Positions 276 through 42,015 of a DNA stretch of 42,015 bases are shown here, in pieces. The position numbers were made by a program, and so were the translations under genes. Position 1 is the first letter of the stretch. Each line of letters starts with the position of its first letter. The DNA is from a virus (lineage: Duplodnaviria; Heunggongvirae; Uroviricota; Caudoviricetes): the IMG/VR virus record IMGVR_UViG_2537562195_000009. One strand, written 5' to 3'. The notes under the pieces were generated by a model. The model made no database searches. It was not told the DNA's origin and saw only the letters and a list, made by a program, of their open reading frames with translations.

Positions 276-1403
276 TTAACATGTTATCTTCATCCAGTTT
301 TTCCCACGATCATCATCATAACGATCAGTTTGCTGTTGTGTTTTATGCCCAAGTAGCTTCCTAGTATCTATCCCTTGTTCTTTGTACAGGCGTTCAGATA
401 AAGACCTTTGCTCATGGAATGTGGCAGGTGAGCCATCCCCCCAGTCAATCCCTGCTAAATCCCGTGCTTTACTAAAATTCATCGTCAATGTATTGGATTT
501 AACCTGTGCACCACGTTTTGCCTGTGAGGTTGAACGGAAAAAATGCACTAAGTATGGACTGACTGCATAATCACGGCAGCGGACTACTACATCGCGTAAA
601 CTCCAGCTAATCGCGTTGAGACGAAGGGAAAGCGGGATTGCGATTTTGCTCCCGGTCTTTTCCTGAATAACATGGAGATGATCATCCCAAATATCACTAA
701 ATTTCATACGCGAGATATCACCTAACCTCTGGCCAGTAACCAGTGCTAACAGCATGGCATTCCCCATATAACGATGACTGGCATCTGCGATATCAAAAAT
801 TTTTTGCCATTCTTCAAGACTTAACCGTTGTCGGGTAATTTTTCTTCTGGGTTGCTTCGTTGCAAGAGCAGGGTTATACCCTGGTGGAACTTCGCCGTAA
901 TGCTGTGCTTCTTTAAACACATCGATCAATACAGACCTTACGACCTGGGCCATTCTAGGCTGTCCAGCAGAGATATACTCATCAAGTAATTGTGCTATAT
1001 CTCTGACATCAACGGCTGATATCAACTTCAGTCCTGCTCGTTCCCTGAGCAAGGATACTGGTTTGGCTTTCTGTTTATAAGTGTTGAGCTTTATATCGCC
1101 ACTTTTCAGTCTGTCTTCCTGGATTGCTTGATAGCGATCTAACCAGGTTGACGTTGTGATTGCTTTTCCTTTGCTGGTTGCGATCCTGTCACTGATAGCT
1201 AGAATCTGCCGGGTTCTTTGCTCAGCTAGGCGTGTATTGGCCTCAGTGGCAATAGCAATGGCTTCAGCTTCGTTTGTGCCCAAAGAATGAAACTTCCCGG
1301 TCACTGGATGCTTATATCGCCAATAAACTTTATTTACTTTTCTGCTATAGAGCGGATACAAGTTCGGGACTGAAACATTATTCTTACGTGGTCTGGCTGC
1401 CAT
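276..1403 (-). CDS. int: phage tyrosine integrase (lambda Int family)
   Basis: 375-aa ORF; C-terminal region (HEQRSLSERLY...LLGHKTQQQTDRYDDDRG) resembles the lambda Int catalytic C-terminus; overlapped by an excisionase ORF; AAGGA about 9 nt upstream of ATG. Confidence 0.9.
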   Translation of the reverse strand: MAARPRKNNVSVPNLYPLYSRKVNKVYWRYKHPVTGKFHSLGTNEAEAIAIATEANTRLAEQRTRQILAISDRIATSKGKAITTSTWLDRYQAIQEDRLKSGDIKLNTYKQKAKPVSLLRERAGLKLISAVDVRDIAQLLDEYISAGQPRMAQVVRSVLIDVFKEAQHYGEVPPGYNPALATKQPRRKITRQRLSLEEWQKIFDIADASHRYMGNAMLLALVTGQRLGDISRMKFSDIWDDHLHVIQEKTGSKIAIPLSLRLNAISWSLRDVVVRCRDYAVSPYLVHFFRSTSQAKRGAQVKSNTLTMNFSKARDLAGIDWGDGSPATFHEQRSLSERLYKEQGIDTRKLLGHKTQQQTDRYDDDRGKNWMKITC

Positions 1404-1629
1404 TACTTAAAATCCTTTGTAGAATAATAGAATCACTTTTCTTAATGACAGGAGTAACTAATTCTCCAACTAACTCTGCGTCCTCACGTACTCGCCATAG
1501 TCGACCTTGTTTCATTGCCGGTGGACAAAATAAATTCTGCTTAGCATAACGACGCAATGTGGACACACTTGGAGGGTTACTCCTAAATTTTTCCGCAGCC
1601 CATTCCTCAAGTGTCAGCATTTGAAGCAT
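1384..1629 (-). CDS. xis: excisionase (lambda Xis-like)
   Basis: 81-aa ORF overlapping int by 20 nt; LTLEEW...RR...PP..K.GR pattern like lambda Xis (YLTLQEW...RRW...PPP.KDGR); GAGG upstream. Confidence 0.8.
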   Translation of the reverse strand: MLQMLTLEEWAAEKFRSNPPSVSTLRRYAKQNLFCPPAMKQGRLWRVREDAELVGELVTPVIKKSDSIILQRILSNGSQTT

Positions 1630-1683: not shown

Positions 1684-2220
1684 TTAGGATTGCTTATGCA
1701 TCTTATGCAGCTCTTTAAAACGTTCCATAAACATCCCGTAGGCATGGCCCGGTGCCAGTGGAATCACGTTGAACATCTCTGTTGCCTGGATACCTTCCAG
1801 TACAGGCCAGAAAGAGCCATCATCAAGCCCGAGATCGCGGCGTTCGGTTGCCAGCATGATGAGATCGGCATATTTCACAGGCGTGCTTATAACCGGGGGT
1901 AACCCGTATTTCTCACGGATTATGGTGTCTATTTTTTCTTCCATCCGTTTATAGTCAGGAAGAAGGCGTTTCAGTGGTGCGGGGATGTCCTGGCAATACG
2001 CTTCTGTTGCATCATGCATTAACGCTTCAAAAGCAAATTCCTGCGGTACCAGCTGGCTGCAAAGCACCGCATGTTGGGCGACGCTGTAGAAGTGCGAAAG
2101 ATGACCGGCAAAGCGACAGATATTTGAAAGGGAAACCGCGATATCGTTAATATCGATGTCGTCTTTATTTATCCTGTCATAATAAAAATGCTTCCCAGAA
2201 AAAGTTTTAATAAATGACAT
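1684..2220 (-). CDS. yfdR: HD-domain phosphohydrolase/nucleotidase (YfdR-like, CPS-53 type)
   Basis: Start taken at internal ATG (MSFIKTFSG) preceded by GAGGAG; 178 aa; H...HD metal-binding signature (LSHFYSVAQHA ... LMHDATEAY). Confidence 0.7.
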   Translation of the reverse strand: MSFIKTFSGKHFYYDRINKDDIDINDIAVSLSNICRFAGHLSHFYSVAQHAVLCSQLVPQEFAFEALMHDATEAYCQDIPAPLKRLLPDYKRMEEKIDTIIREKYGLPPVISTPVKYADLIMLATERRDLGLDDGSFWPVLEGIQATEMFNVIPLAPGHAYGMFMERFKELHKMHKQS

Positions 2221-2348
2221 TTTGTTCTCCTCGTTATATGCGCTGCACCGCGCTGAATTTGGGTTAAAGAAAACCCTCGCCATCAGGCGATTATTGAGTC
2301 AATTACGTTTCCATAAATGCCCCCGCAGGGGCATTTGCAGTAATGAAA

Positions 2349-3173
2349 TCAGGCGGTGAAAGTACCAATAAAGGTTTCTACTTTGCTGTCCTTGAATTTC
2401 TCAACAAGCAGATCACGAAATTCGTTAGCCATTTCTTCCTGCACTGCTTCCAGCTGAATAATGCGCAGAACCAGTACAGGACGATCGCCAGTGATAATGC
2501 TGAGGCGTAATTTAAATGGACGTTCTTTCAGGCCTTCAAACGGAACGCATTTAAATTCAAATGCCACTGGCATAATGTCTTTGGTCTTCGCTTCGACAGA
2601 CTCCATCAGGGAGCGTTTGCCGCTGAAGTCATTATCTTCAAAATCAGCGGTCTGGTTTGCTTCAATCGTGATTTTACGGACAGCCGCAGCCGCTTTTGTT
2701 GCCTGAATAGCGTCACCATTAGCATCAAAGCCCACAAGGTAGTCGGCCCAGTCTTCAATCCATTCTGCCAGTGACTTCTGGGAATTACGCTCGCCATTAA
2801 CAGACAACAGAGCAGAGAACGGTGCTGTCTTTTTCAGTTTGAGAGTGGCGGTGTTATCTGCGTGACCTGGCTCATCAATAGTACCCAGGTTAAGCACACT
2901 GACGGCACGCATATTATCGGCATCGATAAAGCAGCGGGTGCCTTCATCTGCAAGATCTTTAGAATAACGGGTAAAGTCATCGATGCTGGCAGTGGAAAGC
3001 GCACCACGGAAACGGAAACGATTTAAATTAAATTTTTCCAGATCATGAATGCGGAAATTCTCAGGCAATGCCACAGCATCGGCACCAATCTTACTGATAA
3101 TTTCATTAACACCCTGAGCAGAAATAAGGGCATGGATTTGATTAATTGCGGTTGCGTCTAAGTTCTGAGACAT
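2349..3173 (-). CDS. YfdQ-like phage protein (DUF2303-type), function unknown
   Basis: 274-aa ORF, same strand and operon as the HD protein; recalled similarity to CPS-53 YfdQ (length match). Confidence 0.6.
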
Positions 3174-3238
3174 AATAAGTCCTCACTATATAAAGATATT
3201 CAGTGATGAGATAAATAATCAGTTTATTAAGAACGATA

Positions 3239-3601
3239 TTAACGACCTGCTGCGCGGAGTTTTCCGTCAGGTTCACCGGCAAGAGTCAGTAATTGTCCCT
3301 GGTCTTCCTGCAGAATAGTCAGGCGACCACCGCGATTGACATACATCGGCGTTTCGGTGGTGTCTTCTTCGGAAATTTTCCCGCGGTTAGTCGGGCGGAC
3401 ATATGAGAGTTTGTGTTTGATTTTCACACGGTTCTCATCAAACGGTTCGATTTCCAGATTGAGTGAGACCTTCCCTTTGGTTTTCGTGTTCATCACACCG
3501 GAAGCGACTTCACTGAGAACTGCGCCGATTTTGGTTTCAAATACGCCGCCGTCCAGCTCCCCGATAAATGCCTGCACATCAGTACTGCGTTCGCTAGCCA
3601 T
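3239..3601 (-). CDS. hypothetical early protein (YfdP-like)
   Basis: Longer ORF 3239..3919 trimmed to third ATG (MASERSTDV...) which has a GAGGAG RBS; 120 aa. Confidence 0.5.
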   Translation of the reverse strand: MASERSTDVQAFIGELDGGVFETKIGAVLSEVASGVMNTKTKGKVSLNLEIEPFDENRVKIKHKLSYVRPTNRGKISEEDTTETPMYVNRGGRLTILQEDQGQLLTLAGEPDGKLRAAGR

Positions 3602-4038
3602 TTTGCTGCTCCTCATCATATCGACCCTGCAAGGTCGGTTGGTTTCTCCACAAAACAGAGAAGAACACCTGCGGTGGCAGCCGCCCGGATGGATTGGGTT
3701 ATGAGCCCGTCGTCCGGTGATGCTCTTCTCTGTTTTGTAAAAAGAGCGGTACCAGCCGGAAGCAAGGGTACAAACTGGTACAGCCAGGACTACACACAGC
3801 ATAAAGTTGTGGTGCCGGGTGCCTCCCGGTGCCTGGCGAAGGTTGCACACCAGGCGGGTGGGTATCCACAGAAGGTCGACTGTCAGCCTCAACCTTAACC
3901 CGCGTGCGCTGAGCCGCATTCACCACAACGCTAAGGATTCTCTCTGGTTGAAAATACTTAGCTGTTATGTGCCTGTCTTTTCACCACTTCAGGCTCGGTG
4001 GTATCCTTTTAAGCCCGTATACATAAAAGGAAAATCAA

Positions 4039-4284
4039 ATGACTTTTGATGAAAAAGAACTTGATAATGCAATTAATAAAATCATCGTAACGTCGCTCTT
4101 TTCCTGTCTCAGCGACACTCAGCAGAAACAGTTCTACGAATCGGCTTTCAACATGATCGAGCGTTGTTGTTTCTGCGATGCCGACGAGTTACCTGAAAAA
4201 ATCAGGAAACAGTTGGCTGATGCTCTTCGAGTGCGACTTTCTGACCAATTTTCTGAAATGTACTCTCCGAATTTGGACAAATAG
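4039..4284 (+). CDS. hypothetical protein (81 aa), opposite strand to the early-left operon
   Basis: ORF with AAGGAAAA upstream of ATG; acidic, helical-looking product; overlaps 3' end of the convergent ORF 4202..4477. Confidence 0.4.
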   Translation: MTFDEKELDNAINKIIVTSLFSCLSDTQQKQFYESAFNMIERCCFCDADELPEKIRKQLADALRVRLSDQFSEMYSPNLDK

Positions 4285-4477
4285 AAAAAGGCCATTTCCA
4301 TTCAGGGTCTGATGGAAAGACTTCAGCCTGTTCCAAAGCACGGCGTAAAGAGAATACAACTCCAGCCATAATCTGATGTTTCCCATTGGTCCAGCTATCG
4401 CCGCTCTGATCTACAGGAGCGGCTATGTCGTATGACCAAACGACTTCATCACTATTGTTTAAAATCTGGACTTTCAT
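4202..4477 (-). CDS. hypothetical protein (91 aa)
   Basis: ORF with GGAGG upstream; in line with the leftward early operon. Confidence 0.4.
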   Translation of the reverse strand: MKVQILNNSDEVVWSYDIAAPVDQSGDSWTNGKHQIMAGVVFSLRRALEQAEVFPSDPEWKWPFSICPNSESTFQKIGQKVALEEHQPTVS

Positions 4478-4485
4478 TTTGTTCT

Positions 4486-4689
4486 TTAACCTCCAGATTT
4501 CCGCGCATCTAAAGGCGCATTCTCATTTGGTGTGAACCGAATAGTTGTGCTGCTATTGATTAATGCCCCGACACACAAGACTACGCACTCAGAGCAGATA
4601 GCAACTTCATCTTTTCCGCCTTTGGCGATGATTTTTTTTGCCTGCAGCTCGTTTGCGCCACAAAACGAGCATGTGAAATAACGGTTCAT
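4486..4689 (-). CDS. ClpX N-terminal zinc-binding-domain-like small protein
   Basis: MNRYFTCSFCGANELQAKKIIAKGGKDEVAICSECVVLCV closely mirrors the ClpX zinc-binding domain (CSFCGK...KLIAG...YICDECVDLC); start chosen at second ATG with AGAGAG upstream. Confidence 0.65.
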   Translation of the reverse strand: MNRYFTCSFCGANELQAKKIIAKGGKDEVAICSECVVLCVGALINSSTTIRFTPNENAPLDARKSGG

Positions 4690-4874
4690 TTGCGCTCTCT
4701 TACACATAGTATTTAACGAATCATCCGGTCATTCATACGCCACCGGCGGCTACTTCGTGGGCGTCCTGCCTGTTCGTTTTTGACATTTACTGACTGCTTA
4801 CGACACATGCACCGTGTTGCAACCAGATTTTGTTGTAATCCTGTAGTTGGTCTGGAACAAAAGATAAAATTAAA

Positions 4875-4911
4875 TTGCGAGATATGCAAGTGATATTTGC
4901 GAGATATGCAA
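4875..4911. promoter_or_regulatory. candidate OL operators: two copies of TTGCGAGATATGCAA spaced 22 bp
   Basis: Exact 15-bp direct repeat at 4875..4889 and 4897..4911 in the region between cI and the leftward early genes; TTGC..GCAA dyad ends. Confidence 0.5.
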
Positions 4912-4965
4912 ATTTATAGGTAATAAAAAGCCACCTTTCGGTGGCCGATGGATGGGATATTGAGG

Positions 4966-5658
4966 TTAATTATGTCTCTTAAGGGTTTGCGACTGACTGA
5001 TTAAGACCTTTCCAAAGACCATGAATCGGTGTTCGTTTTCGCTAGTAATTCCCCATTCACGGTAAATCTGGTTATCAGAAATCACCAGCAGTTTGTCAGG
5101 AATCATTTGAAGTCTTTTAACGTATATTTTGTCATCAAAACCAAAGACATATATACCATCACCATCAAACTGATTGATGCTGACATCAACGAAGATGAGA
5201 TCTCCGGGCTCAATGGTTGGACACATACTGTCCCCACGAACGTTGATAACTTTGATGTGATTGGCTGGTCGTCCGCCGAACATTGATACAGCATTATCAG
5301 TTCTGTATTCGATGGCATGAATCACATCAATGACATCACCGCCCTGGATAAGGCCATTTCCCGCACTGGCACTGATATCCAGCATTTCAATACGGAACAC
5401 ATCCTTCACCTGCGCAACATCCTCATTATTACTGTTTTTATATACAGTATTACTTTTGTGGGCAGAGGTAAAGAGATCAGCAATATCAACACCTAAGCTC
5501 CTGGCAATATTACTCAGTGTTTGTTCGGTAAATTGTTTTTGCTTACCCGTTTCTAAGCGCGAGATGTTCGCCGCATCTACTCCTATCGCTTCAGCGAGAT
5601 CGGCGATTTTCATGTTCTTCGCTTGGCGAAGTTGTCTGACTCGGTTTCCTATGTTCAT
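4966..5658 (-). CDS. cI: CI-type repressor (XRE HTH N-terminal plus S24 LexA-like peptidase C-terminal)
   Basis: 230 aa; N-terminal HTH (IADLAEAIGVDAANISRLETGK); C-terminal S24 fold with VRGDSMCPTIEPGDLIFVD and KIYVKRL; divergent from a cro-like gene. Confidence 0.85.
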   Translation of the reverse strand: MNIGNRVRQLRQAKNMKIADLAEAIGVDAANISRLETGKQKQFTEQTLSNIARSLGVDIADLFTSAHKSNTVYKNSNNEDVAQVKDVFRIEMLDISASAGNGLIQGGDVIDVIHAIEYRTDNAVSMFGGRPANHIKVINVRGDSMCPTIEPGDLIFVDVSINQFDGDGIYVFGFDDKIYVKRLQMIPDKLLVISDNQIYREWGITSENEHRFMVFGKVLISQSQTLKRHN

Positions 5659-11427: not shown

Positions 11428-11457
11428 GTAAGCGGCTCGCCAGAACCGTCTTAATAT

Positions 11458-13028
11458 TTACTGAGAGCTCAGATCAACTTTCCAGGGCAACAGATCGCGT
11501 ACCCGATTTGCCGGCCAGTCCTGGATATGCTCAATGACGTAACGCAGCCATTTTTCTGGCTCTACATTGTTCAGACGGCATGTGCCGATCAGCGAGTACA
11601 ACACCGCCGCATGTTCGCCACCGCTGTCGGAACCCGCGAACAACCAGTTCTTCCGGCCCACGGCCACACCCCGTAAGGCGTTCTCTGCGATGTTGTTGTC
11701 GATTTCCACCCAGCCATTGCTGCAGTACACGTTCAGGGCCTCCCACTGTTTCAGCAGGTATGCGAACGCTTTCGCCGTATCCGAGTGACGCGACAGGGTT
11801 TTCATCTGAGTCTGTATCCAGTCATACAGTGACTGCATCAGTGGCGCAGCTCTGGCTTTTCTTGCCGCCAGACGCTGTTCTGCTGTACATCCCCGGACTT
11901 CTGCCTCTATGGCATACAGTTCACCGATACGCTGCAGGGCTTCTGTGGTGATGTCGGTGGGCACTCTTGCATGCACATCGTGGATTTTTCTCCGGGCATG
12001 AGCCATACACGCGGCTTCCGTTATTCTGCCGGATTCGTATAACGCCCGGTAACCACCGTAAGCATCGGCCTGAAGCACTCCGCTGTAACCGGCCAGGTGA
12101 TTCTGTGGATGGATACCTTTCCGGTCCGGACTGTACGCGAACCAGACCGCCGGGGGCATCTGTGAACCGGCGTTACGGTCATCACGGACGTAGACCCACA
12201 GCCGGGCGGTCCGGGTTTTACCGCTGCCCGGCTCCTGGACCGGACGGGGATATCATCAGCATGGACTTTACCGGGCATCAGCACATACTGGCGCAGGACG
12301 TCATACAGCGGCTCCAGCAGTTCAGCAACGGCACCTGTCCAGCGCCCCAGTGTGGCACGGCTCAGCTCCACTCCCTGACGACGGTATATTTCTGACTGAC
12401 GGTATAACGGCAGATGGTCTGCATATTTCCCGGTGACAACATGGGCCAGAAGCCCCGCTCCGGCATAGCTGCGTACAATGGGTTTTGAAGGCACCGGCGC
12501 CTGCACGATATGGTCACAACGGCAACAGGCCAGTTTCGGACGTTGTGTTTCGATAACCTTAAAGGCGCTGCTGATAAGCTCCAGTTGCTCTGACACATCA
12601 CATCCCAGTGGACTGAGTTCACCACCACAGGCCGGACAGCATTCCTCTTCCGGCCGGATGACCCGGGTTTCACGGGGAAGTGAGGCCGGTAACGGTTTAC
12701 GGGCTGAAGACTGGCGCAGGGCGGATGGCAGTGCCGGGTCATATTGCTCACCCAGCGTTTCCGCCATTTCTTCCTGAAGTGCGCTGATTCGCTCCTGTGC
12801 TTCCTGTATCTGTCGTTCGGTTTTTGCGCGAAGTTTTTCTGAGCTTTTACCGAACTGCATGCGCTGCAGTTTTGCAACCAGCGCCTTCAGCCGGTTGATT
12901 TCGGAAGCATAAGCCGCCACCCGCTGTGAGAGCAGGCGGTTGTATTCAGCCATCTGGCGGATGGTGTCCTGTTGCGTCTGCAACAGTGCCCGCAGGCGGG
13001 CATTCTCATGAGCAAGTGAGGTATCCAT
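11458..13028 (-). pseudogene. tnpC: IS66 transposase TnpC, frameshifted into two ORFs (12021..13028 and 11458..12159)
   Basis: N-terminal ORF (zinc-finger CPACG...CCRC) and C-terminal ORF (DDE region) are in different frames; frame breaks near 12230..12250 (…DDIPV then out-of-frame text). Confidence 0.8.
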
Positions 13029-13047
13029 ATCCTCACTTTACAACGGG

Positions 13048-13395
13048 TTATATGCGGATTCCAGCGCGTTCCGTTCGTTTCGGGTGCTTCCAGTTGATGC
13101 CCTCAAGAAGCATGGATAACTGAGCCGGAGTAAGGTGAACCTTACCATCGCGGGTGACCGGCCAGACGAAGCGGCCCCGCTCCAGGCGTTTGGTGAAGAG
13201 GCACAGTCCGTCGCTGTCAGCCCACAACACTTTTATCTGGTCACCCCGGCGTCCGCGGAAGATGAACAGGTGTCCGGAGAACGGGTCATCCTTCAGGACG
13301 TTCTGAACTTTTGAGGCCAGGCCGTTAAAGCCATTTCGCATGTCGGTGATGCCGGCAACCAGCCAGATACGCGAACCTGCAGGGAGAGATATCAT
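13048..13395 (-). CDS. tnpB: IS66 Orf2 (TnpB)
   Basis: 115 aa, typical IS66 TnpB sequence (MISLPAGSRIWLVAGITDMRNGFNGLA…). Confidence 0.85.
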   Translation of the reverse strand: MISLPAGSRIWLVAGITDMRNGFNGLASKVQNVLKDDPFSGHLFIFRGRRGDQIKVLWADSDGLCLFTKRLERGRFVWPVTRDGKVHLTPAQLSMLLEGINWKHPKRTERAGIRI

Positions 13396-14072
13396 CAGTG
13401 GCTGCTCCCTTTCATTTCGCGGATAAGTGTCTGTAATAACGCCGGCGTCAGTTTACCTTTAAGCCTGAGAGTTCCGGTCGGCAGAACCAGCTCACAGCAC
13501 AGACTGTCGGACGGTGTATTTATCTGCTCTGGTTCCTGTGCCGGAGCCGGGATTTTATTATCCGGCTCCGGCGTTAACGTCACGGGAAGCAGTGCAGGCA
13601 TATTTTTTCCGGAAGGCAGCAGGCCACCTTTCCGGTATTGATGGCGCCAGTTGAAGAGCAGGTTATCGTTGATTCCGTTTTCACGGGCGATCTGCGCCAC
13701 ACAGGCTCCGGGCTGCAGTGACTGCTCCACTAAGGCGATTTTAAACGCATAAGGAAAATTAGGCCGCCGGGGACGTTTTTTTACCACCGGGACTTCGGAC
13801 ATAACGGTGTTTTCAGTAAGTACGACAGGTACTGTGGAGGCACTCCCGTAAAGACAGGCATCAAGTTCCCGCTCCGACATACTTGCGGGCAGAGGCCATG
13901 AAAGGCCAGCTTTGCGGAAGCGCACGAACATACCACAAACTGTTGATTTTGGTACGCCCAGGCGACGTCCGGCCACAATCCGTGGTAAATGTTCTTCAAA
14001 GTGAAGACGTAAAGCTTCGGTGATCCAGGTCCGGTATTCCATACGATAGTGTCCATTAAAAATGATGGACAT
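13395..14072 (-). CDS. tnpA: IS66 Orf1 (TnpA) with N-terminal HTH extension
   Basis: C-terminal half has the IS66 Orf1 pattern (KKRPRRPNFPYAFKIALVEQSLQPGACVAQIARENGINDNLLFNWRHQYR); true start may be internal. Confidence 0.7.
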   Translation of the reverse strand: MSIIFNGHYRMEYRTWITEALRLHFEEHLPRIVAGRRLGVPKSTVCGMFVRFRKAGLSWPLPASMSERELDACLYGSASTVPVVLTENTVMSEVPVVKKRPRRPNFPYAFKIALVEQSLQPGACVAQIARENGINDNLLFNWRHQYRKGGLLPSGKNMPALLPVTLTPEPDNKIPAPAQEPEQINTPSDSLCCELVLPTGTLRLKGKLTPALLQTLIREMKGSSH

Positions 14073-14125
14073 TATTTTTGTGGAGCCGGAGGAAACAGAC
14101 CAGACGGTTCAGATGAGGCGCTTAC

Positions 14126-14629: not shown

Positions 14630-14644
14630 GGGGCGGTGCCCCTT
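14628..14644. terminator. GC hairpin at the convergent Q / MBL gene junction
   Basis: AAGGGGC-ggt-GCCCCTT overlaps both stop codons; weak U-tract on either strand. Confidence 0.4.
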
Positions 14645-15734
14645 ATAAGCAAACAGCAGCGTAATGTGTTTCAACCTTAGGACTAGACGTTAAGCAATTA
14701 CTAACAGCAACTATTCCAAATTTATTGTTATTATTTGAAAATGAAACTGAACTTTTCATCTTCGCTAATATGCTCCGTGCTTCAGCAATCGCAGGTGATT
14801 TTTCTTGAGCGTTATCACTTTTAGGCATCGATGTACAGTATAATGCTGATGATTTTGATTTGTAGAGGTCGATCATATCCTGCCGTGGTAGTGATGATTT
14901 ATCATAAGTGGTTAAAATCGAAATAGGGTCTTTTTTGATTAGCTTGTTCCATGTTTCCTCATGAAAGCCTGTTTGGGAACCGTGGTGTGGAAGTTTGAAA
15001 ATACCTGCTAAGTTTGGTTCTGGACGATTTATTGCATTGCAAACGGAATTCCATCCAGTGTTTTTACTAACTTCTAAATCTGCGCCTAATAATACTTCAT
15101 TATTTTCTGATGTTGGAGAGCATATTCTGATTACAACGCAGTAGTGATTAGGATTAACTAATTTAGCAGACATGGCTATTTCGCTAAAATTTGATGATAA
15201 TTTTGTAGAGTTTGCGAATTCAAGATCAGAGTTTGTTATATCCATATCAGAAGGCGATAACGAATGTACTTGAATATTCTCGCTGCTTTTGAATAGTATG
15301 CAGTCTTTTTTTGCATGGACAAGACGATCATTTTTGTGCAAATCATAGAATAAAGACATGACCTTGTTTATTTCTTTAGTTTTTGCCATATCCTCACCAT
15401 TAACACTTAGTGCATTAATATATCCTCTAAATTCAGATGTGTTCAATGCTGCGCTAATTACAACTTTTGCATTTTTGCAACTATTAATAATTTCGGCTAT
15501 CCCTTTAATATGATCATCGTGAAAATGACTAATGACTATCAGTTTTACTTCATCTTGTGGATTAACACCTTTTTCTTTCAGATAATCTAATGCTGCGGGG
15601 CGTTTATTATCATTTAAACAGGAATCAATAATCATCCATTCATTTAACCCAAGACGAACGGCAATTGATTCGCCAATACCTTTACCAAAAACAATTGTTT
15701 CACAGATAGAGTTTTGAACAGTAGGCACCTGCAT
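14643..15734 (-). CDS. MBL-fold metallo-hydrolase, probable nuclease-type; third gene of the AT-rich island
   Basis: 363 aa; HxHxDH motif (VISHFHDDHIKG) and downstream KLPHHGSQ motif as in ComEC/beta-CASP-type MBL enzymes; no signal peptide; low GC. Confidence 0.7.
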   Translation of the reverse strand: MQVPTVQNSICETIVFGKGIGESIAVRLGLNEWMIIDSCLNDNKRPAALDYLKEKGVNPQDEVKLIVISHFHDDHIKGIAEIINSCKNAKVVISAALNTSEFRGYINALSVNGEDMAKTKEINKVMSLFYDLHKNDRLVHAKKDCILFKSSENIQVHSLSPSDMDITNSDLEFANSTKLSSNFSEIAMSAKLVNPNHYCVVIRICSPTSENNEVLLGADLEVSKNTGWNSVCNAINRPEPNLAGIFKLPHHGSQTGFHEETWNKLIKKDPISILTTYDKSSLPRQDMIDLYKSKSSALYCTSMPKSDNAQEKSPAIAEARSILAKMKSSVSFSNNNNKFGIVAVSNCLTSSPKVETHYAAVCL

Positions 15735-15757
15735 TCACCGTATTGCGTAATTTCTAA

Positions 15758-16330
15758 TTATTGTTTAAAAATTCTTCTTAGGCGAAATTCGGATACTCTT
15801 TTTTCTTGTCCAAATAAAGTTTTTTCCATACCAACATACCAATAAAAAATAGCGTTTTCGACAAGTTTTTGTTGATCGCTTTTACTAAATTCATCTGAAG
15901 AGAACGTTATCTCATCAATGAATTCATGAGAGTTTATATCATATACTCTAGCATGTATTTCTTTATTTGATTTCATATTGACAATTTTGTCAATTATACC
16001 ATAAGTATCTAATGCCTTTTCAAGAAAGGTTATTTTTTCTTTAAGTCTTGCCTTGAGTTTTTTATGCTGAGTTCTATTTTTCACTCCTTTTTGTGTAGAT
16101 GGGAATGGTTGCGGAGTAGGTATTTCAATTATATTTGTTGAATATTTTGTGCTGCAAGTTTCTTGCTGCTGTTCAAATGTTTCAGAATAATTTTCAAAAC
16201 CTGTCTTAATTATACAGGAAAGAGTTATGTTGTGGGTCTTTACAAATGTTTCAATGTTTTTTTCTTTTTTTGTTACGCAACGTGTATTACTAAGGCTGGA
16301 AGAATTTTCAGGATAGGTTAATATATTCAT
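15758..16330 (-). CDS. hypothetical protein (190 aa); second gene of the AT-rich island
   Basis: 4-nt overlap with upstream gene and 23-nt gap to the MBL gene suggest an operon; no recognisable motif. Confidence 0.5.
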   Translation of the reverse strand: MNILTYPENSSSLSNTRCVTKKEKNIETFVKTHNITLSCIIKTGFENYSETFEQQQETCSTKYSTNIIEIPTPQPFPSTQKGVKNRTQHKKLKARLKEKITFLEKALDTYGIIDKIVNMKSNKEIHARVYDINSHEFIDEITFSSDEFSKSDQQKLVENAIFYWYVGMEKTLFGQEKRVSEFRLRRIFKQ

Positions 16331-17043
16331 GATAGAATCCGCTTAAACATTTGTTCATGGCTGAGGATATCATTCTTAATTGCTGCGGAAATATGTTTTT
16401 GAATTATATTTGGGAGTAATTGAGTGAATGCAACAGCGTCACGAATATCTTTCAAAGCTAGATCGTGATTGTATTGAACATTTAAACCAAATACATCTGG
16501 ACTAACTTTTCTATACGAAGCATAAGAGACATTGATAGCCTCTTTGTAAATTGATTTATCTTCCTTGTTAGAGTTTTCTATTGCAATGACTAAATTTCTC
16601 ATCCCATAATGATATTCAACTTCATCCTGAAGTATTTCTGATTTATTGTGTTCTTGCCAATAAATTTTGGGGACTAATGCATCTCCTAACTGATTCCAGT
16701 TGGTTTCATTATTAAAATGATAATCAAAAAGGGTGTTTATTCCAACAGCTTGTGTCTCAGAATGAGGAAACATAGAAAATATTGATGACACTAAGTCTGC
16801 CAAGGAATTTTCAAGCCCTGTTTTTTTCAGTTGAAATACTACTTTTGTTGGTATGCACGTAATCTCAATCCAACCGTAATCTGTTGTTATTGAATCACCA
16901 TCAAAAGTTGTGTTTGAATTTGCTATATCTTCCTCTCTTAGCAAATCGTATCTTCTAAACCATTCAGATGAAAACATCAATGGAGTAATGATGTTAGAGA
17001 TCCATACAACATTAATCGTATGCTTAATAAGTTTGAAAGTCAT
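16327..17043 (-). CDS. hypothetical protein (about 238 aa); first gene of the AT-rich island
   Basis: Track ORF 16327..17082; start moved to second ATG (MTFKLIK) which has a GAGGG RBS; no recognisable motif. Confidence 0.5.
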   Translation of the reverse strand: MTFKLIKHTINVVWISNIITPLMFSSEWFRRYDLLREEDIANSNTTFDGDSITTDYGWIEITCIPTKVVFQLKKTGLENSLADLVSSIFSMFPHSETQAVGINTLFDYHFNNETNWNQLGDALVPKIYWQEHNKSEILQDEVEYHYGMRNLVIAIENSNKEDKSIYKEAINVSYASYRKVSPDVFGLNVQYNHDLALKDIRDAVAFTQLLPNIIQKHISAAIKNDILSHEQMFKRILS

Positions 17044-17248
17044 AAATTGTTCTTGGCCCTCAGAATGAAAACCTAAGTGCATTTAGGCATAGCTACCGCA
17101 CGACTGTTTTTAATAAAACAATCCGATTGATAGCTATAACATATTGATGTCTAACGTTATAGTGCATAAGAAACATAGCAAAAATCTAACGCGTACGCAA
17201 AAATTCTTGTAATCTGTTAAGAGTGGTTACTTTGCCACGCAGATTAAC

Positions 17249-34758: not shown

Positions 34759-35803
34759 ATTTCAGCGCCCGACGCTGGCAGAAAATATCAGTATGCTCCG
34801 TAACGATTTATTCGCCAGGCTGGACGTCAGCGACACGCTCCGGCGCATGGATGAAGACGTGCGGGCAAAGGTGTATGCGGCGGCGCTGCATACGGTTTAC
34901 GGTTACATCGATTATCTGGCAATGAACATGCTGCCTGACCTGTGCGATGAGTCCTGGCTGGCGCGACATGCTGCGATGAAACGGTGTCCGCGCAAGGGGG
35001 CCACGGCTGCCAGCGGGTATATGCGCTGGGAAGGTGTCAGCGATGGCCTGAAGGTGACCGCCGGGAGTGTTATTCAGCGCGATGACCTGGTTCAGTACAC
35101 GGCAACTGCCGATGCAACCAGCTCCGGTGGTGTCCTGCGCGTGCCGATCGCCTGCTCAAGTTCAGGCGCGGTCGGTAACGCTGACGACGGTACGTCATTA
35201 ATCCTGGTCACGCCGGTGAATGGTCTGCCGTCTTCCGGTGTGGCTGACACCCTGACAGGCGGATTTGATACTGAAGATCTGGAAACGTGGCGCGCCCGCA
35301 TCATTGAGCGGTATTACTGGACGCCGCAGGGCGGGGCTGACGTGGACTATGTCGTCTGGGCTAAAGAAGTGCCCGGCATTACCCGCGCATGGACATACCG
35401 TCACTGGATGGGAACGGGAACTGTCGGTGTGATGATTGCCAGCAGTGACCTGATTAATCCCATTCCGGAAGAATCAACGGAAACGGCGGCAAGACAACAC
35501 ATTGAGCCACTGGCCCCGGTGGCAGGCTCTGATTTGTATGTATTCAGGCCGGTGGCGCATAAAGTGGATTTTCATATCCGCGTGACGCCGGACACACCGG
35601 AAATACGGGCTGCCATCACCGCAGAGTTGCGTTCGTTCCTGCTGCGTGATGGTTATCCTCAGGGAGAACTGAAGGTGTCGCGTATCAGTGAGGCGATTTC
35701 CGGTGCGAACGGGGAATACAGCCATCAGTTGCTTGCCCCGGCGGACAATATCTCCATTGCAAAAAATGAACTGGCGGTTCTGGGGACGATTTCATGGACG
35801 TGA
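34745..35803 (+). CDS. baseplate J-like protein (Mu gp47-like)
   Basis: 352 aa, gene order and size. Confidence 0.7.
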
Positions 35804-36378
35804 CAAACGATGATTACATCCGCCTGTTATCGGCACTGTTGCCGCCCGGTCCTGCATGGTCAGCCAGCGATCCGGCGATTGCCGGTGCGGCACCTTCATT
35901 AACCCGCGTTCATCAGCGTGCGGATGCCCTGATGCGGGAGCTGGATCCGCGCACCACCACTGAACTGATAAACCGCTGGGAGCGTCTGTGCGGTCTGCCG
36001 GATGAATGTATTCCCGCAGGGACACAGACCCTTCGCCAGCGTCAGCAACGGCTGGATGCGAAGGTTAATCTGGCGGGCGGCATCAATGAGGATTTTTACC
36101 TTGCACAGCTTGCTGCCCTGGGCAGACCAGACGCTACTATCACGCGATACGATAAAAGCACGTTCACCTGCTCATCGGCCTGTACTGACGCAGTGAATGC
36201 GCCGGAATGGCGGTATTACTGGCAGGTCAACATGCCAGCCGCCACCAACACCACCTGGATGACATGTGGCGATCCCTGTGATTCCGCGCTGCGCTTCTGG
36301 GGGGACACCGTTGTCGAGTGCGTGCTTAACAAACTCTGCCCTTCGCATACCTACGTAATTTTTAAATATCCGGAGTAA
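35794..36378 (+). CDS. tail protein (Mu gp48 / YmfQ-like)
   Basis: 194 aa, precedes the tail fibre. Confidence 0.6.
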
Positions 36379-36381
36379 TCC

Positions 36382-37164
36382 ATGCATCGTATAGACACGA
36401 AAACCGCGCAGAAGGATAAGTTCGGCGCGGGTAAGAACGGTTTTACCCGTGGTAACCCCCAGACCGGCACACCTGCCACCGATCTGGATGATGACTACTT
36501 TGACATGTTGCAGGAAGAACTTTGTAGCGTGGTGGAGGCCTCCGGTGCCAGCCTGGAGAAAGGGCGGCATGACCAGCTACTTACCGCGCTTCGCGCGCTG
36601 CTGTTAAGCCGCAAGAATCCGTTTGGCGATATCAAATCGGATGGCACGGTGAAAACGGCTCTCGAAAACCTTGGTTTGGGAGAAGGCTCAGCATTACCCG
36701 TTGGTGTGCCTGTTCCGTGGCCTTCAGCCACTCCGCCAACAGGCTGGCTGAAATGCAACGGAGCAGCTTTTTCTGCTGAAGAATACCCGGAACTGGCAAA
36801 GGCTTATCCGACAAATAAATTACCTGATTTACGCGGTGAGTTTATTCGTGGCTGGGATGACGGACGTGGAGTGGATAACGGAAGGGGATTATTAACGCTT
36901 CAGGACGGTGCGATTGTCAGTCATAACCACTATTGGGGAATCTGGACTTCACGAACTAACGACCAGACTCTGGGAAGTTTTACAGGCACCACGATTTTAA
37001 AACAAATCACGCCCCTGTCTCCGGCCATTGACTTCGATAATTACCCAATTCCCAACCCGGCTATTACAGAGGGTGGTGTTGTTGCGGCAACGACTAAACC
37101 TGCAGGTGCGAATGAAACACGCCCACGAAATGTCGCTTTTAACTATATTGTGAGGGCTGCATAA
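36382..37164 (+). CDS. tail fibre protein; constant N-terminus plus variable C-terminus inside an invertible segment
   Basis: 260 aa; crossover site lies in codons ENLGLGEGS (36661..36690); C-terminal GEFIRG...[13 protein letters not shown] collar-like motif. Confidence 0.8.
36662..36686. repeat. invertase crossover site, left (gix/pix-like)
   Basis: TCGAAAACCTTGGTTTGGGAGAAGG; inverted copy at 38516..38539 shares the TTGGTTTGGGAGAAG core in the same codon phase. Confidence 0.75.
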
Positions 37165-37766
37165 TGAATAACGCAGAATTAAACAGTGAATTAATTGCCA
37201 CTATGGCAGGAGAAATTACTGTTTATAACTTTGACGTCATGAGTCGGGAGTATATTTCAGCTTCAACTGAATATCTTGCTGTTGGTGTCGGCATTCCGGC
37301 ATATTCCTGTTTAGATGCTCCAGGCACCTACAAAGCTGGTTATGCAATCTGCCGCTCTGCAGATTTTAACTCATGGGAATATGTACCAGACCATCGCGGT
37401 GAAATCGTCTATAACACCGAAACGGGAGACGCCAAAGAAATCACAACTCCGGGTGATTACCCCGAAAAAACAACCACTATCGCCCCGTTAACGCCATACG
37501 ATAAATGGGATGGTGAGAAATGGGTGACGGATACTGAGACACAGCATAGCGCCGCAGTAGACGCGGCAGAAGCACAACGTCAGTCACTGATTGATACTGC
37601 AATGGCTTCCATTAGTCTGATTCAACTGAAATTGCAGGCCGGGCGGAAGCTGATGCAGGCAGAGACCACCCGACTTAACACTGTGCTGGATTACATTGAC
37701 GCGGTGACGGCAACAGATACCAGTACCGCGCCGGATGTCATCTGGCCTGAACTGCCGGAGGAGTAG
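37164..37766 (+). CDS. tail fibre assembly protein (Tfa)
   Basis: 200 aa; conserved Tfa C-terminus (…LDYIDAVTATDTSTAPDVIWPELP). Confidence 0.8.
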   Translation: MNNAELNSELIATMAGEITVYNFDVMSREYISASTEYLAVGVGIPAYSCLDAPGTYKAGYAICRSADFNSWEYVPDHRGEIVYNTETGDAKEITTPGDYPEKTTTIAPLTPYDKWDGEKWVTDTETQHSAAVDAAEAQRQSLIDTAMASISLIQLKLQAGRKLMQAETTRLNTVLDYIDAVTATDTSTAPDVIWPELPEE

Positions 37767-38169
37767 GCCATTCAATATCTGGCGCACTGGAAGTATCGAC
37801 CAGTTCCAGTGCGTCCAGATAATCCAGCCACAAATTATATTGCGCCAGTTCCTCACCTTTCAGACGACCAATCGCCGCTTTACCAGGCCATTGTTTACTG
37901 TTCATGTATTCGTTGGCCTGATTAACTAATCGCTGTTTATTTGATTCAGCGATTGAGATTAATTCTTCGCTGGTAAGTGGTGGCGCATCCTGCCATGCTG
38001 GAAAACCATTTTTATCTGAACCAAGTATTTTACCATCAGGCCATGCAACTCCTGCGAACTCAGAATAAATAGTAAAGTTTATTTTCGTAGCGTTCTCAGG
38101 AATGGTTTGGCTATCTGGTGAAATATAAAATCCCGAATCAGAGGGATTAAAATAATATGTCTTTTCCAT
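37738..38169 (-). CDS. alternative tail fibre assembly protein (Tfa'), inverted orientation
   Basis: 143 aa; same Tfa C-terminal motif (…LDYLDALELVDTSSAPDIEWPTPP). Confidence 0.8.
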   Translation of the reverse strand: MEKTYYFNPSDSGFYISPDSQTIPENATKINFTIYSEFAGVAWPDGKILGSDKNGFPAWQDAPPLTSEELISIAESNKQRLVNQANEYMNSKQWPGKAAIGRLKGEELAQYNLWLDYLDALELVDTSSAPDIEWPTPPAVQAR

Positions 38170-38171
38170 AG

Positions 38172-38527
38172 TTAATACCCCACAGCCATCCAGTAAATTG
38201 AATTTGTTGTAGCAGAAGTGTAAGTAAATCTGATTTTAGTTCTGTTGGTACTTCCAATATCAAAGCCCACAGAACGGGCAGAAGGATCATTAGTTGAAAT
38301 AAGAGCGTTTACCGAACGACAAGCAGCAGGGAAAGCTACAGGTAATGTTATATCAACTGTTCCAACACTTCCTCCGGTTGGTGAGACAGAAAAACTCCCC
38401 CATTGAATAATCATCCCCCCAGGTAATTTCTGGTATCCATTGGCGGTCAATGAGTTACCAAAGCTGTTCATATCCGGTACCTGATTTTCTCCTGTCCCCA
38501 CATTCCTCTTTGCCGCTTCTCCCAAAC
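38172..38527 (-). CDS. alternative tail fibre C-terminal cassette, expressed only after inversion
   Basis: Minus-strand ORF whose 5' end contains the inverted crossover core (…NVGLGEAAKR…) in frame with the constant fibre N-terminus. Confidence 0.7.
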
Positions 38528-38539: not shown

Positions 38540-38596
38540 AAATGCAGAAATAACGAGCAAATGGCATCATTCCTGCTTTTGTCAGGGAGATCTACC

Positions 38597-39151
38597 ATGC
38601 TTATTGGCTATGTACGTGTGTCAACAAATGACCAGAACACAGATCTACAACGTAATGCGCTGAACTGTGCAGGATGCGAGCTGATTTTTGAAGACAAGAT
38701 AAGCGGTACAAAGTCCGAAAGGCCGGGACTGAAAAAACTGCTCAGGACATTATCGGCAGGTGATACGCTGGTGGTCTGGAAACTGGACCGACTGGGGCGC
38801 AGTATGCGGCATCTTGTCGTGCTGGTGGAGGAGTTGCGCGAACGAGGCATCAACTTTCGTAGTCTGACGGATTCAATTGATACCAGTACCCCAATGGGGC
38901 GCTTTTTCTTTCATGTGATGGGTGCCCTGGCTGAAATGGAGCGTGAACTGATTGTTGAAAGAACAAAAGCTGGACTGGAAGCTGCTCGCGCACAGGGACG
39001 AATTGGTGGACGTCGTCCCAAACTTACACCAGAACAATGGGAACAGGCCGGACGATTAATTGCATCAGGAGTTCCTCGCCAGAAGGTGGCGATTATCTAT
39101 GATGTTGGTGTGTCAACTTTGTATAAGAGGTTTCCTGCAGGGGATAAATAA
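38597..39151 (+). CDS. pin: serine DNA invertase (Pin/Gin/Hin family)
   Basis: Start at internal ATG (MLIGYVRVSTNDQNTDLQ); resolvase catalytic N-terminus plus C-terminal HTH; adjacent to invertible fibre segment. Confidence 0.9.
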   Translation: MLIGYVRVSTNDQNTDLQRNALNCAGCELIFEDKISGTKSERPGLKKLLRTLSAGDTLVVWKLDRLGRSMRHLVVLVEELRERGINFRSLTDSIDTSTPMGRFFFHVMGALAEMERELIVERTKAGLEAARAQGRIGGRRPKLTPEQWEQAGRLIASGVPRQKVAIIYDVGVSTLYKRFPAGDK

Positions 39152-39257: not shown

Positions 39258-40091
39258 ATGCATGTTTTTGATAATAATGGAATTGAACTGAAAGCTGAGT
39301 GTTCGATAGGTGAAGAGGATGGTGTTTATGGTCTAATCCTTGAGTCGTGGGGGCCGGGTGACAGAAACAAAGATTACAATATCGCTCTTGATTATATCAT
39401 TGAACGGTTGGTTGATTCTGGTGTATCCCAAGTCGTAGTATATCTGGCGTCATCATCAGTCAGAAAACATATGCATTCTTTGGATGAAAGAAAAATCCAT
39501 CCTGGTGAATATTTTACTTTGATTGGTAATAGCCCCCGCGATATACGCTTGAAGATGTGTGGTTATCAGGCTTATTTTAGTCGTACGGGGAGAAAGGAAA
39601 TTCCTTCCGGCAATAGAACGAAACGAATATTGATAAATGTTCCAGGTATTTATAGTGACAGTTTTTGGGCGTCTATAATACGTGGAGAACTATCAGAGCT
39701 TTCACAGCCTACAGATGATGAATCGCTTCTGAATATGAGGGTTAGTAAATTAATTAAGAAAACGTTGAGTCAACCCGAGGGCTCTAGGAAACCAGTTGAG
39801 GTAGAAAGACTACAAAAAGTTTATGTCCGAGACCCGATGGTAAAAGCTTGGATTTTACAGCAAAGTAAAGGTATATGTGAAAACTGTGGTAAAAATGCTC
39901 CGTTTTATTTAAATGATGGAAACCCATATTTGGAAGTGCATCATGTAATTCCCCTGTCTTCAGGTGGTGCTGATACAACAGATAACTGTGTTGCCCTTTG
40001 TCCGAATTGCCATAGAGAATTGCACTATAGTAAAAATGCAAAAGAACTAATCGAGATGCTTTACGTTAATATAAACCGATTACAGAAATAA
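39258..40091 (+). CDS. mcrA: McrA-like HNH nuclease (Type IV modification-dependent restriction)
   Basis: 277 aa, low GC; C-terminal HNH motif (CENCG…EVHHVIPLSSGG…NCVALCPNCH); pin-mcrA-icd-fragment order matches the e14 right end as recalled. Confidence 0.7.
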   Translation: MHVFDNNGIELKAECSIGEEDGVYGLILESWGPGDRNKDYNIALDYIIERLVDSGVSQVVVYLASSSVRKHMHSLDERKIHPGEYFTLIGNSPRDIRLKMCGYQAYFSRTGRKEIPSGNRTKRILINVPGIYSDSFWASIIRGELSELSQPTDDESLLNMRVSKLIKKTLSQPEGSRKPVEVERLQKVYVRDPMVKAWILQQSKGICENCGKNAPFYLNDGNPYLEVHHVIPLSSGGADTTDNCVALCPNCHRELHYSKNAKELIEMLYVNINRLQK

Positions 40092-40324
40092 AATTATTTA
40101 TTAAAGTCACATTTAAGACGTAATACCCTACAGGGTAAAATTTTTCTCTGATCTTAACTTCTGCAAATGTTAACTGCTATTTTTATGCTAAAAATGGTTA
40201 TCAAAACTCAAAAACACATGTTTATAATCAATGAGTTATAGAAATGCTAAGGGCTAATGAGTTATATGCAAATTAGTAAAATTATGTTGCTATGTCAAAT
40301 AGTTACGATTTAGTCATCTAACTA

Positions 40325-40489
40325 ATGTTACGCCATATGGGCTGGACTGAAGCCGCAGACCTGATTGTTAAAGGTATGGAAGGCGCAATCAATGCGAAGA
40401 CCGTAACCTATGACTTCGAGCGTCTGATGGAAGGCGCTAAACTGCTGAAATGTTCAGAATTTGGTGATGCGATCATCAAGAACATGTAA
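40325..40489 (+). pseudogene. icdC: isocitrate dehydrogenase 3' fragment (icdC-like), prophage right attachment junction
   Basis: Translates as [54 protein letters not shown], matching the recalled Icd C-terminus; an in-frame stop lies immediately upstream, so no icd body. Confidence 0.8.
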
Positions 40490-40511
40490 TCACTACATGT
40501 GTTTAATATTG

Positions 40512-40544
40512 CAACGGGCGTATAACACGCCCGTTGTTTTATTT
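40512..40544 (+). terminator. rho-independent terminator after the icd fragment
   Basis: CAACGGGCG-tataaca-CGCCCGTTG stem then TTTTATTT. Confidence 0.8.
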
Positions 40545-40591
40545 ATGTAGGTATTATTAATAGCATATCGAGCATATTTATATAAAACCCT

Positions 40592-40915
40592 TTACTTGAG
40601 CCCATATGGGCATATTTTTATAATGCAACTATTATGCAAACATTTATTTGTTATTTTGCTTTCTCCTGGAGGACACTCTTGACTGCTTTTGAGTAGACTC
40701 CATAAATCCTTGTTGAATGGTGCGATGTTATAAATAGTAATAGGATATTCTTTATCTTTAAGGATAATTCCAGATTTAACCGGTGTAAATATACTGCCAG
40801 GAGGGAGAAATATAGTAGATTGATACCAGATGATCATTTTCATATTACCCCATATGGCTGAAAAAGATATGCCGCATGAAGGTTGAATTATCGTGTCAAT
40901 TACTATCCACTTCAT
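40592..40915 (-). CDS. iraM: IraM-like anti-adaptor protein (host gene)
   Basis: 107-aa AT-rich ORF matching recalled IraM (MKWIVIDT…ICPYGLK); downstream of icdC as in E. coli K-12. Confidence 0.6.
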
Positions 40916-41372
40916 TTGTTATGTCTTATCCCACGGTATTTAATATAGTTCATTTGGATGTTCATTTCTTTATTTTGCATATGAGTATATTACCCCTTCA
41001 AAAAATAAATTAATTAAAACGATTGCTTATATAAAACAAAATTTAAAGCAAGGAATCTCAATGGATGTTAAACAAAATGAGATTTAGTGAAAACAATAAA
41101 TTATTCACTTCGTTTTAGATTTGTTTAGCTATAATGTTATACATTCAAATGACTGAACATCCTGTAATTAAAACATAGCCTTTATGCTACTTTGTGCCAA
41201 TTTGCTAAACATTATGGTTGCCTTTTTATATAACGATAATAATGAATATAAGCATGACATGAGAATAAGGTTTCAATTTTTGAGTTATATAGGAAAGGTT
41301 TAACCTGTTCCTGGCTAAAATACATATAACTGGATGATGACTAAACCAAAACACATGTGCGTTAAGTATTGA

Positions 41373-41401
41373 AACGGGCGTATGGCACACCCGTTGTTTT
41401 T
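41373..41401 (+). terminator. second, diverged copy of the icd-type terminator hairpin
   Basis: AACGGG…CCCGTT stem plus TTTTT; the surrounding 45 bp are about 85% identical to 40495..40544. Confidence 0.45.
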
Positions 41402-41610: not shown

Positions 41611-42015
41611 CTAGATTAATGGTTTATTATTTTCTACATCTTCAATATATAAAAGCGTATTATCAATGGCGTAGTAACTGCGTTTGTTATGATTAACATC
41701 AGTAACCCACCGGAAAACGCCCGCGCCTGCTAGTGTTGAACAGTATTCCCGAAATGTAGATTTTCCGCAAATATGAAGCAATGCGGCCTCTTTTATTTTA
41801 GCAGGGTTCTTGGTCGTACTAACTTTTAACAGGTTCCTGGTTCCTCTTAATAACAAAACCGTGTCATCGTGAGTAATAATTCTGATGTTATCCGTAGCCA
41901 GATAATAAATGTAATGTGCAATACGGTGATGTTTTAATTCTGAATAAAACCAGGAGAAGTTTTGCTCTTTTCTCACTTGCTCAAACATCTTTTGAAAAAC
42001 AACGACCTGATCCAT
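41611..42015 (-). CDS. ycgX: YcgX-like host protein (DUF1398-type)
   Basis: 134-aa ORF whose start codon is at the window edge; gene order icdC-iraM-ycgX as recalled for K-12. Confidence 0.5.
   Translation of the reverse strand: MDQVVVFQKMFEQVRKEQNFSWFYSELKHHRIAHYIYYLATDNIRIITHDDTVLLLRGTRNLLKVSTTKNPAKIKEAALLHICGKSTFREYCSTLAGAGVFRWVTDVNHNKRSYYAIDNTLLYIEDVENNKPLI

Follow-up and report, generated by a model that had tools for sequence, protein, structure and literature searches.

The integration of e14 at icd in Escherichia coli K-12, and its excision, were described by Hill et al. 1989 (as cited in PMC13626634 and PMC6379469). Excision of e14 is SOS-inducible and restores icd from icdC (PMC13626634). 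In the K-12 annotation, e14 is shown as beginning with the final 165 bp of icd and ending at the base that precedes icdC (b4519), which is itself a 165-bp fragment starting at Met363 and is followed by the flank iraM-ymgK-ymgL-ycgX. Phage 21, a lambda-type siphovirus with another gene order, uses the same position in icd, and its virion genome carries a 165-bp icd pseudogene, a terminator, arm-type sites and int, the int gene lying directly beside the icd copy. According to Campbell and co-workers, the phage 21 and e14 integrases reportedly do not efficiently cross-excise. In many ExPEC strains icd is the insertion site of the sit-bearing "PAI-icd" (PMC7545054). This B2-type PAI-icd/sitABCD prophage is inserted at the icd position used by e14, and a displaced fragment of the same type marks its right end. 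The integrases that use the 3' ends of tRNA and tmRNA genes (P4, P22, HP1) follow the same logic as the icd-targeting element described here, with an attP copy that keeps the target intact and a displaced partial copy at the far junction. Unlike in those systems, the target here is a protein-coding gene, and the replacement copy is therefore constrained at the codon level.

We analysed a 42,015-bp stretch of DNA recorded as viral (IMGVR_UViG_2537562195_000009, hereafter the window), in which the stretch at 40325-40544 is almost certainly the attR of a temperate myovirus of the e14 family that has inserted into the 3' end of icd. An open reading frame on the plus strand at 40325-40489 consists of 54 codons and a stop, and its product matches residues 363-416 of E. 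coli Icd over its full length (E = 4.6e-30), 52 of the 54 residues being identical to K-12 isocitrate dehydrogenase. The homology to Icd begins at exactly 40325, the Met363 codon, with non-icd phage DNA directly 5' of it. This DNA is the P arm of attR, which extends from the mcrA stop to the core (40092-40324, plus strand), is nearly identical to the e14 attR arm of K-12 and contains no icd body; an in-frame TAA at 40319-40321 lies two codons ahead of the ATG of the fragment. The displaced fragment is without promoter, ribosome-binding site or gene body, and in a genome that is identical here the NCBI annotation lists it as a partial pseudogene, "isocitrate/isopropylmalate family dehydrogenase", with its N-terminus missing.

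Downstream of the fragment is the native intrinsic terminator of icd, T1 (40495-40544, plus strand), in which a hairpin at 40511-40537 with 11 pairs (7 of them G-C) is followed by a T-run and was called as a terminator. The hairpin folds with -21.8 kcal/mol (z = -4.2), a value reached by none of the shuffled sequences, and the T1 block directly after icd is kept across Enterobacteriaceae. The initial annotation had described this region, at the coordinates 40325-40544, as the last 54 icd codons plus terminator without the gene body and behind an in-frame stop, and had read it as the right junction of a phage that integrated into the icd 3' end. All of this holds, including the coordinates, and the arrangement is that of K-12 e14, with pinE and mcrA on one side and iraM and ycgX on the other. 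The right boundary of the prophage is fixed at 40324/40325. That the stretch might instead be a partial icd duplication unrelated to any phage, or a chance open reading frame, has the bare existence of a gene fragment in its favour and nothing more. It is refuted by the Icd match given above, by the match to the K-12 e14 junction and by the identity to empty sites described below; moreover, prophage genes flank the fragment, and its boundary is, to the base, the junction of e14, phage 21 and many other elements. The probability that we would assign to such an origin is negligible.

The left flank was deduced from close relatives. Thirteen complete genomes match the first 1700 bp of the window at 99% identity or more, and we used RM10466 and ML35, both of which are without the IS66 insertion of the window. 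ML35 is 100% identical over these 1700 bp, while RM10466 shows 99.9-100% identity over all shared sequence (BLAST) and differs from the window, beyond SNPs, in two respects: the IS66 copy, found only in the window, and an inverted tail-fibre segment. In RM10466 and, independently, in ML35 the order on the left is rluE, intact icd, a gene for a TPR protein and intE, with the stop of the intact icd 2,778 bp and the attL core 2,942 bp to the left of window position 1. The initial annotation had placed the left junction beyond the window start and had proposed a leftward extension to find it, with the absence of icd within a prophage length as the outcome that would speak against integration. The extension, carried out in these near-identical genomes, recovered both the intact icd, only 2.78 kb away, and attL at 2.94 kb. 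From core to core the prophage of RM10466 measures 40,560 bp, and that of the strain from which the window derives, with the IS included, would be about 43.3 kb.

The gene content of the window is that of one prophage. At its left end, where an integrase had been noted before, lies intE (276-1403, minus strand), which encodes a lambda-type tyrosine integrase with arm-binding (PF09003) and catalytic (PF00589) domains, with 94% identity to K-12 IntE and 59% identity to phage 21 Int. It adjoins the excisionase gene (1384-1629, minus strand; PF07825), named xisE in identical genomes. The right end of the prophage carries, on the plus strand, the invertase gene pinE (38561-39151; Pfam Resolvase/HTH_7) and mcrA for an HNH restriction enzyme (39258-40091; Pfam HNH), which abuts attR. 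The first chromosomal gene past attR, on the minus strand at 40592-40915, is named iraM in identical genomes and follows icd directly in genomes with an empty site; ycgX (41611-42015, minus strand) completes the right host flank. The window also carries early, lysis, head and contractile-tail genes related to those of SfV/SfII-type phages. Only one integrase gene and one excisionase gene are present, and the modules for replication, lysis, head and tail each occur once.

Tandem arrays at icd are known elsewhere (see below), and one could suppose that the window likewise contains two tandem elements, such that the fragment does not belong to the element of the left-hand integrase and attR pairs with an internal attL. 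Against this, the single module set is collinear with one 40.56-kb prophage in RM10466, the window has no second icd-like sequence (the sole second match, in locus L001, is attL, outside the window), and the P arm of the window is that of e14, the arm partnered by IntE in K-12. We consider two elements to be very improbable.

Two rearrangements distinguish the window from its relatives. The Pin-invertible tail-fibre segment (36686-38515), which adjoins pinE and contains alternative fibre tips and assembly genes, lies in the orientation opposite to that of RM10466, and the overlap at either end is 20 bp. A 2,698-bp insertion of the IS66 family (ISCro1-like) occupies 11428-14125, is bounded by an 8-bp target duplication (CTTTGTGT) and interrupts a DUF968/YdfU-family gene just upstream of the Q antiterminator. 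None of the complete genomes compared has an IS66 copy at this position, and the RM10466 prophage is also without it. Since the insertion is just upstream of Q, it may cripple late gene expression, and the prophage may have lost its viability as a phage. On the minus strand at 14643-17082, between Q and the lysis cassette, there are genes for an MBL-fold metallo-hydrolase and two hypothetical proteins, a trio that looks like a moron or cargo module.

Which of the two icd ends belongs to the host can be read from genomes without the prophage. To reconstruct attB, 400 bp of icd body from RM10466 was joined to the fragment of the window and its downstream flank. The reconstructed sequence was 100% identical over all 901 bp to many prophage-free E. 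coli genomes, in which icd is followed directly by iraM. Therefore, the fragment in the window (100% identical to the native end of prophage-free genomes, and of the icdC pseudogene type) is the resident host end and the copy at attL is that of the phage. This agrees with the earlier proposal that the phage supplies a replacement end, for the attL copy has all 54 codons and its own terminator. The two copies differ at 10 of 165 nucleotides in 8 codons, and every difference is synonymous, one of them a three-base TCA/AGC switch between serine codons. At the level of sequence, a pattern confined to synonymous changes is the mark of a phage copy under selection to provide a functional Icd C-terminus. 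The terminator of the phage copy is homologous to that of the host and is weaker (-13.1 kcal/mol), its stem being kept through a compensatory change from C-G to A-U.

The mcrA-fragment-iraM-ycgX junction was found over at least 80% of its length in 328 genomes. Across 5,426 complete genomes the icd site is uninterrupted in 3028 and contains an insertion or rearrangement in about 44%. In other genomes the e14-type arm abuts icd ends that were supplied by other elements, and in the viral contigs L044 and L049 the arm and fragment are followed by an iraM-less flank. The "displaced" end is thus whichever end was resident at the time of integration. In a further viral contig, IMGVR_UViG_3300029745_000183 (L038), an array at 2207-5617 consists of pinE, mcrA, the P arm and the fragment, followed by a phage-21-type P' arm, in which TTCCCCAAAA occurs three times, and by an integrase gene whose product is 99.7% identical to phage 21 Int.

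Such arrays raise the question of whether the junction in the window is one layer of a serial or tandem icd array, with a fragment that came from an element integrated earlier. The array in L038 is consistent with this, as is a second, decayed copy of the icd terminator, T2 (41353-41400, plus strand), a 48-bp block with 84-85% identity to T1 (40495-40540) that is not part of attR. T2 sits 860 bp downstream of T1, is oriented as T1 is and has no gene on the plus strand that it could terminate; it folds no better than shuffled sequence. Together T1 and T2 bracket the AT-rich iraM-ymgK segment (40545-41352, GC 0.30), and the flank to the right of T2 resembles an e14-type P' arm. However, the fragment and the iraM flank are 100% identical to the prophage-free arrangement, which means that the fragment is simply the resident end for the present prophage. 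Furthermore, no integrase or phage remnant lies between the fragment and ycgX, and there is no icd coding homology ahead of T2. A candidate remnant of icd coding sequence upstream of T2, seen by eye (about 23 of 38 positions matching), was rejected by a shuffle test: in an anchored alignment upstream of T2 with 2000 shuffles and control segments, the score was 5-6 against a shuffle mean of about 4, and 467-790 of the 2000 shuffles were as good as the observed sequence. Local alignment around T2 extended nothing past the 48-bp block. We therefore regard an earlier element as an unlikely source of the fragment and retain its assignment as the host end displaced by the present prophage.

The origin of T2 itself is a separate matter. 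The iraM-ymgK segment occurs in 3,939 of the 5,426 complete genomes and is missing from about 27%, and in 1,452 genomes one terminator is all that separates an icd fragment from ymgL. This iraM-less junction belongs to the sitABCD prophage in the B2-type strains BH100 and MP1. It is possible, although we would lean against it, that an older element integrated at the icd terminator, delivered iraM and then decayed, leaving T1 and T2 as its footprint. Alternatively, a deletion between the T1 and T2 repeats could have given rise to the genomes without iraM. Full-text literature searches returned nothing linking iraM to icd or a prophage, nor phage 21 to e14 or icd.

The position of the strand exchange was approached by comparison with K-12. 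The initial annotation had suggested that alignment of the two icd 3' ends would define the core. The alignment did place the homology boundary at 40325, but it did not delimit the core, since attL and attR in this lineage are identical for their first 62 bp and by themselves give no finer position for the crossover. The K-12 junctions have just ATGCTGCGCCA in common between the first base of the fragment and the point where they begin to differ. In resequenced K-12 lines that had lost e14, icd has gained icdC alleles at and beyond position 1196220, which is base 12 of the fragment (PMC13626634), and because transfer begins there, the exchange in K-12 falls inside the first 11 bp. From these excision data and the homology boundary we infer that the crossover core of the window is ATGTTACGCCA at 40325-40335 (plus strand), which corresponds to Icd codons 363-366 and is shared unchanged by the window and both junctions of RM10466. 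It differs from the K-12 sequence ATGCTGCGCCA at two synonymous positions. In 39 viral contigs with an e14-type P' arm, every readable non-icd arm stops 0-1 bp before TGCTGCGCCA; on these sequences the junction position is common to many different elements.

An exact copy of GTTATCAAAA lies in the P arm at 40197-40206, and three closely spaced sites of this type follow the attL terminator in the P' arm. By analogy with the three TTCCCCAAAA-type sites annotated in phage 21, GTTATCAAAA is a putative arm-type integrase site. The window has only two exact copies, and the other, at 1629-1638 on the minus strand, overlaps the ribosome-binding site and start of xisE, where it could be due to chance or be an autoregulatory site.

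Taken together, these features suggest how the element would integrate. Its attP would consist of a phage arm, the 11-bp core, the phage-borne last 54 codons of icd, a terminator and arm-type sites, and IntE, as a lambda-type tyrosine recombinase with an arm-binding domain, would exchange strands between core and core. After integration the icd body would read into the phage-borne end at attL, 2.9 kb left of the window, and would stay functional. The original host end would be stranded about 40-43 kb downstream beside iraM, with the in-frame stop of the phage DNA ahead of it. IntE and XisE are predicted to excise this prophage, which would rejoin the icd body to the fragment in the window.

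A free-phage attP of the mcrA-bearing arm was not among the viral contigs scanned with the P arm, which yielded only attR-type junctions with the e14-type arm against various host or other-phage ends. One of these contigs, L040, was considered as a P-O-P' attP and rejected, its downstream genes pointing to a Salmonella-like chromosomal flank. The scan of viral contigs with the P' arm gave many non-icd arms joined to the core, which look the same as the junctions of tandem arrays. ON470584.1 (L003, vB_EcoM-689R6), deposited as an "induced phage", was also rejected as a free-phage attP, since it has host genes and a mis-join inside. The match between this record and the window ends about 60 bp inside the fragment; the host genes are icd, rluE, nudJ, mnmA and hflD, and the mis-join is located at the repeated icd end. 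The record represents an assembly of a prophage with its flanks and not a virion genome.

The element of the window and K-12 e14 are alike in the IntE family, xisE, the pinE-mcrA right end, the P arm and the right flank. They differ in that e14 is a 15.2-kb deleted remnant, whereas the prophage here, at about 43 kb, has full SfV/SfII-like head, tail and lysis modules and the IS66 copy. They also differ in the genes between the replacement terminator and intE, where near-identical relatives of the window have the gene for a 775-aa TPR protein (L001, 5707-8034) and K-12 e14 has ymfD-ymfE-lit (L002, 2368-5089). In ON470584.1 the same interval (35567-37278) encodes a DUF262 protein and a hypothetical protein. 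This looks like a variable cargo slot, possibly defence-related. The differences from phage 21 lie in the distant Int and in the arm sites, which are of the TTCCCCAAAA type in phage 21 and of the GTTATCAAAA type at the cognate attL; the element is therefore outside the phage 21-type module as marked by a close Int and TTCCCCAAAA arm sites. The PAI-icd/sitABCD prophage has another phage arm and sitABCD cargo, and downstream of its fragment there is one terminator and then ymgL, with no iraM.

Related arrangements are found beyond these strains. IntE-like integrases are encoded beside icd in Scandinavium, Erwinia tracheiphila and E. albertii, and in Citrobacter icd is followed by P' arms of the e14 type. 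In Citrobacter murliniae CP163158.1 (L020; 1675-1870 and 4505-5807) a second, degenerate icd 3' fragment covering amino acids 370-414 with 64% identity lies 2.8 kb downstream of the intact icd and has its own terminator. No IntE-like integrase was detected in this 8-kb locus, and the second fragment is probably the relic of a decayed icd-integrated element.

The junction of the attR/icdC type is already known biology and is already annotated as a partial pseudogene in public genomes. The present case is a clean and fully resolved instance of a textbook mechanism, with no new biology, and phage integration explains the pseudogene call made by automated annotation. Since the phage brings a spare 3' end along, its insertion leaves a housekeeping gene working. 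What is mildly new is peripheral: the variable cargo slot, the tandem arrays of icd-targeting phages and the terminator duplication around iraM. If an older element did deliver iraM, then part of the RpoS circuit, the RpoS-stabilising anti-adaptor IraM, would be a fossil of an icd-targeted integration.
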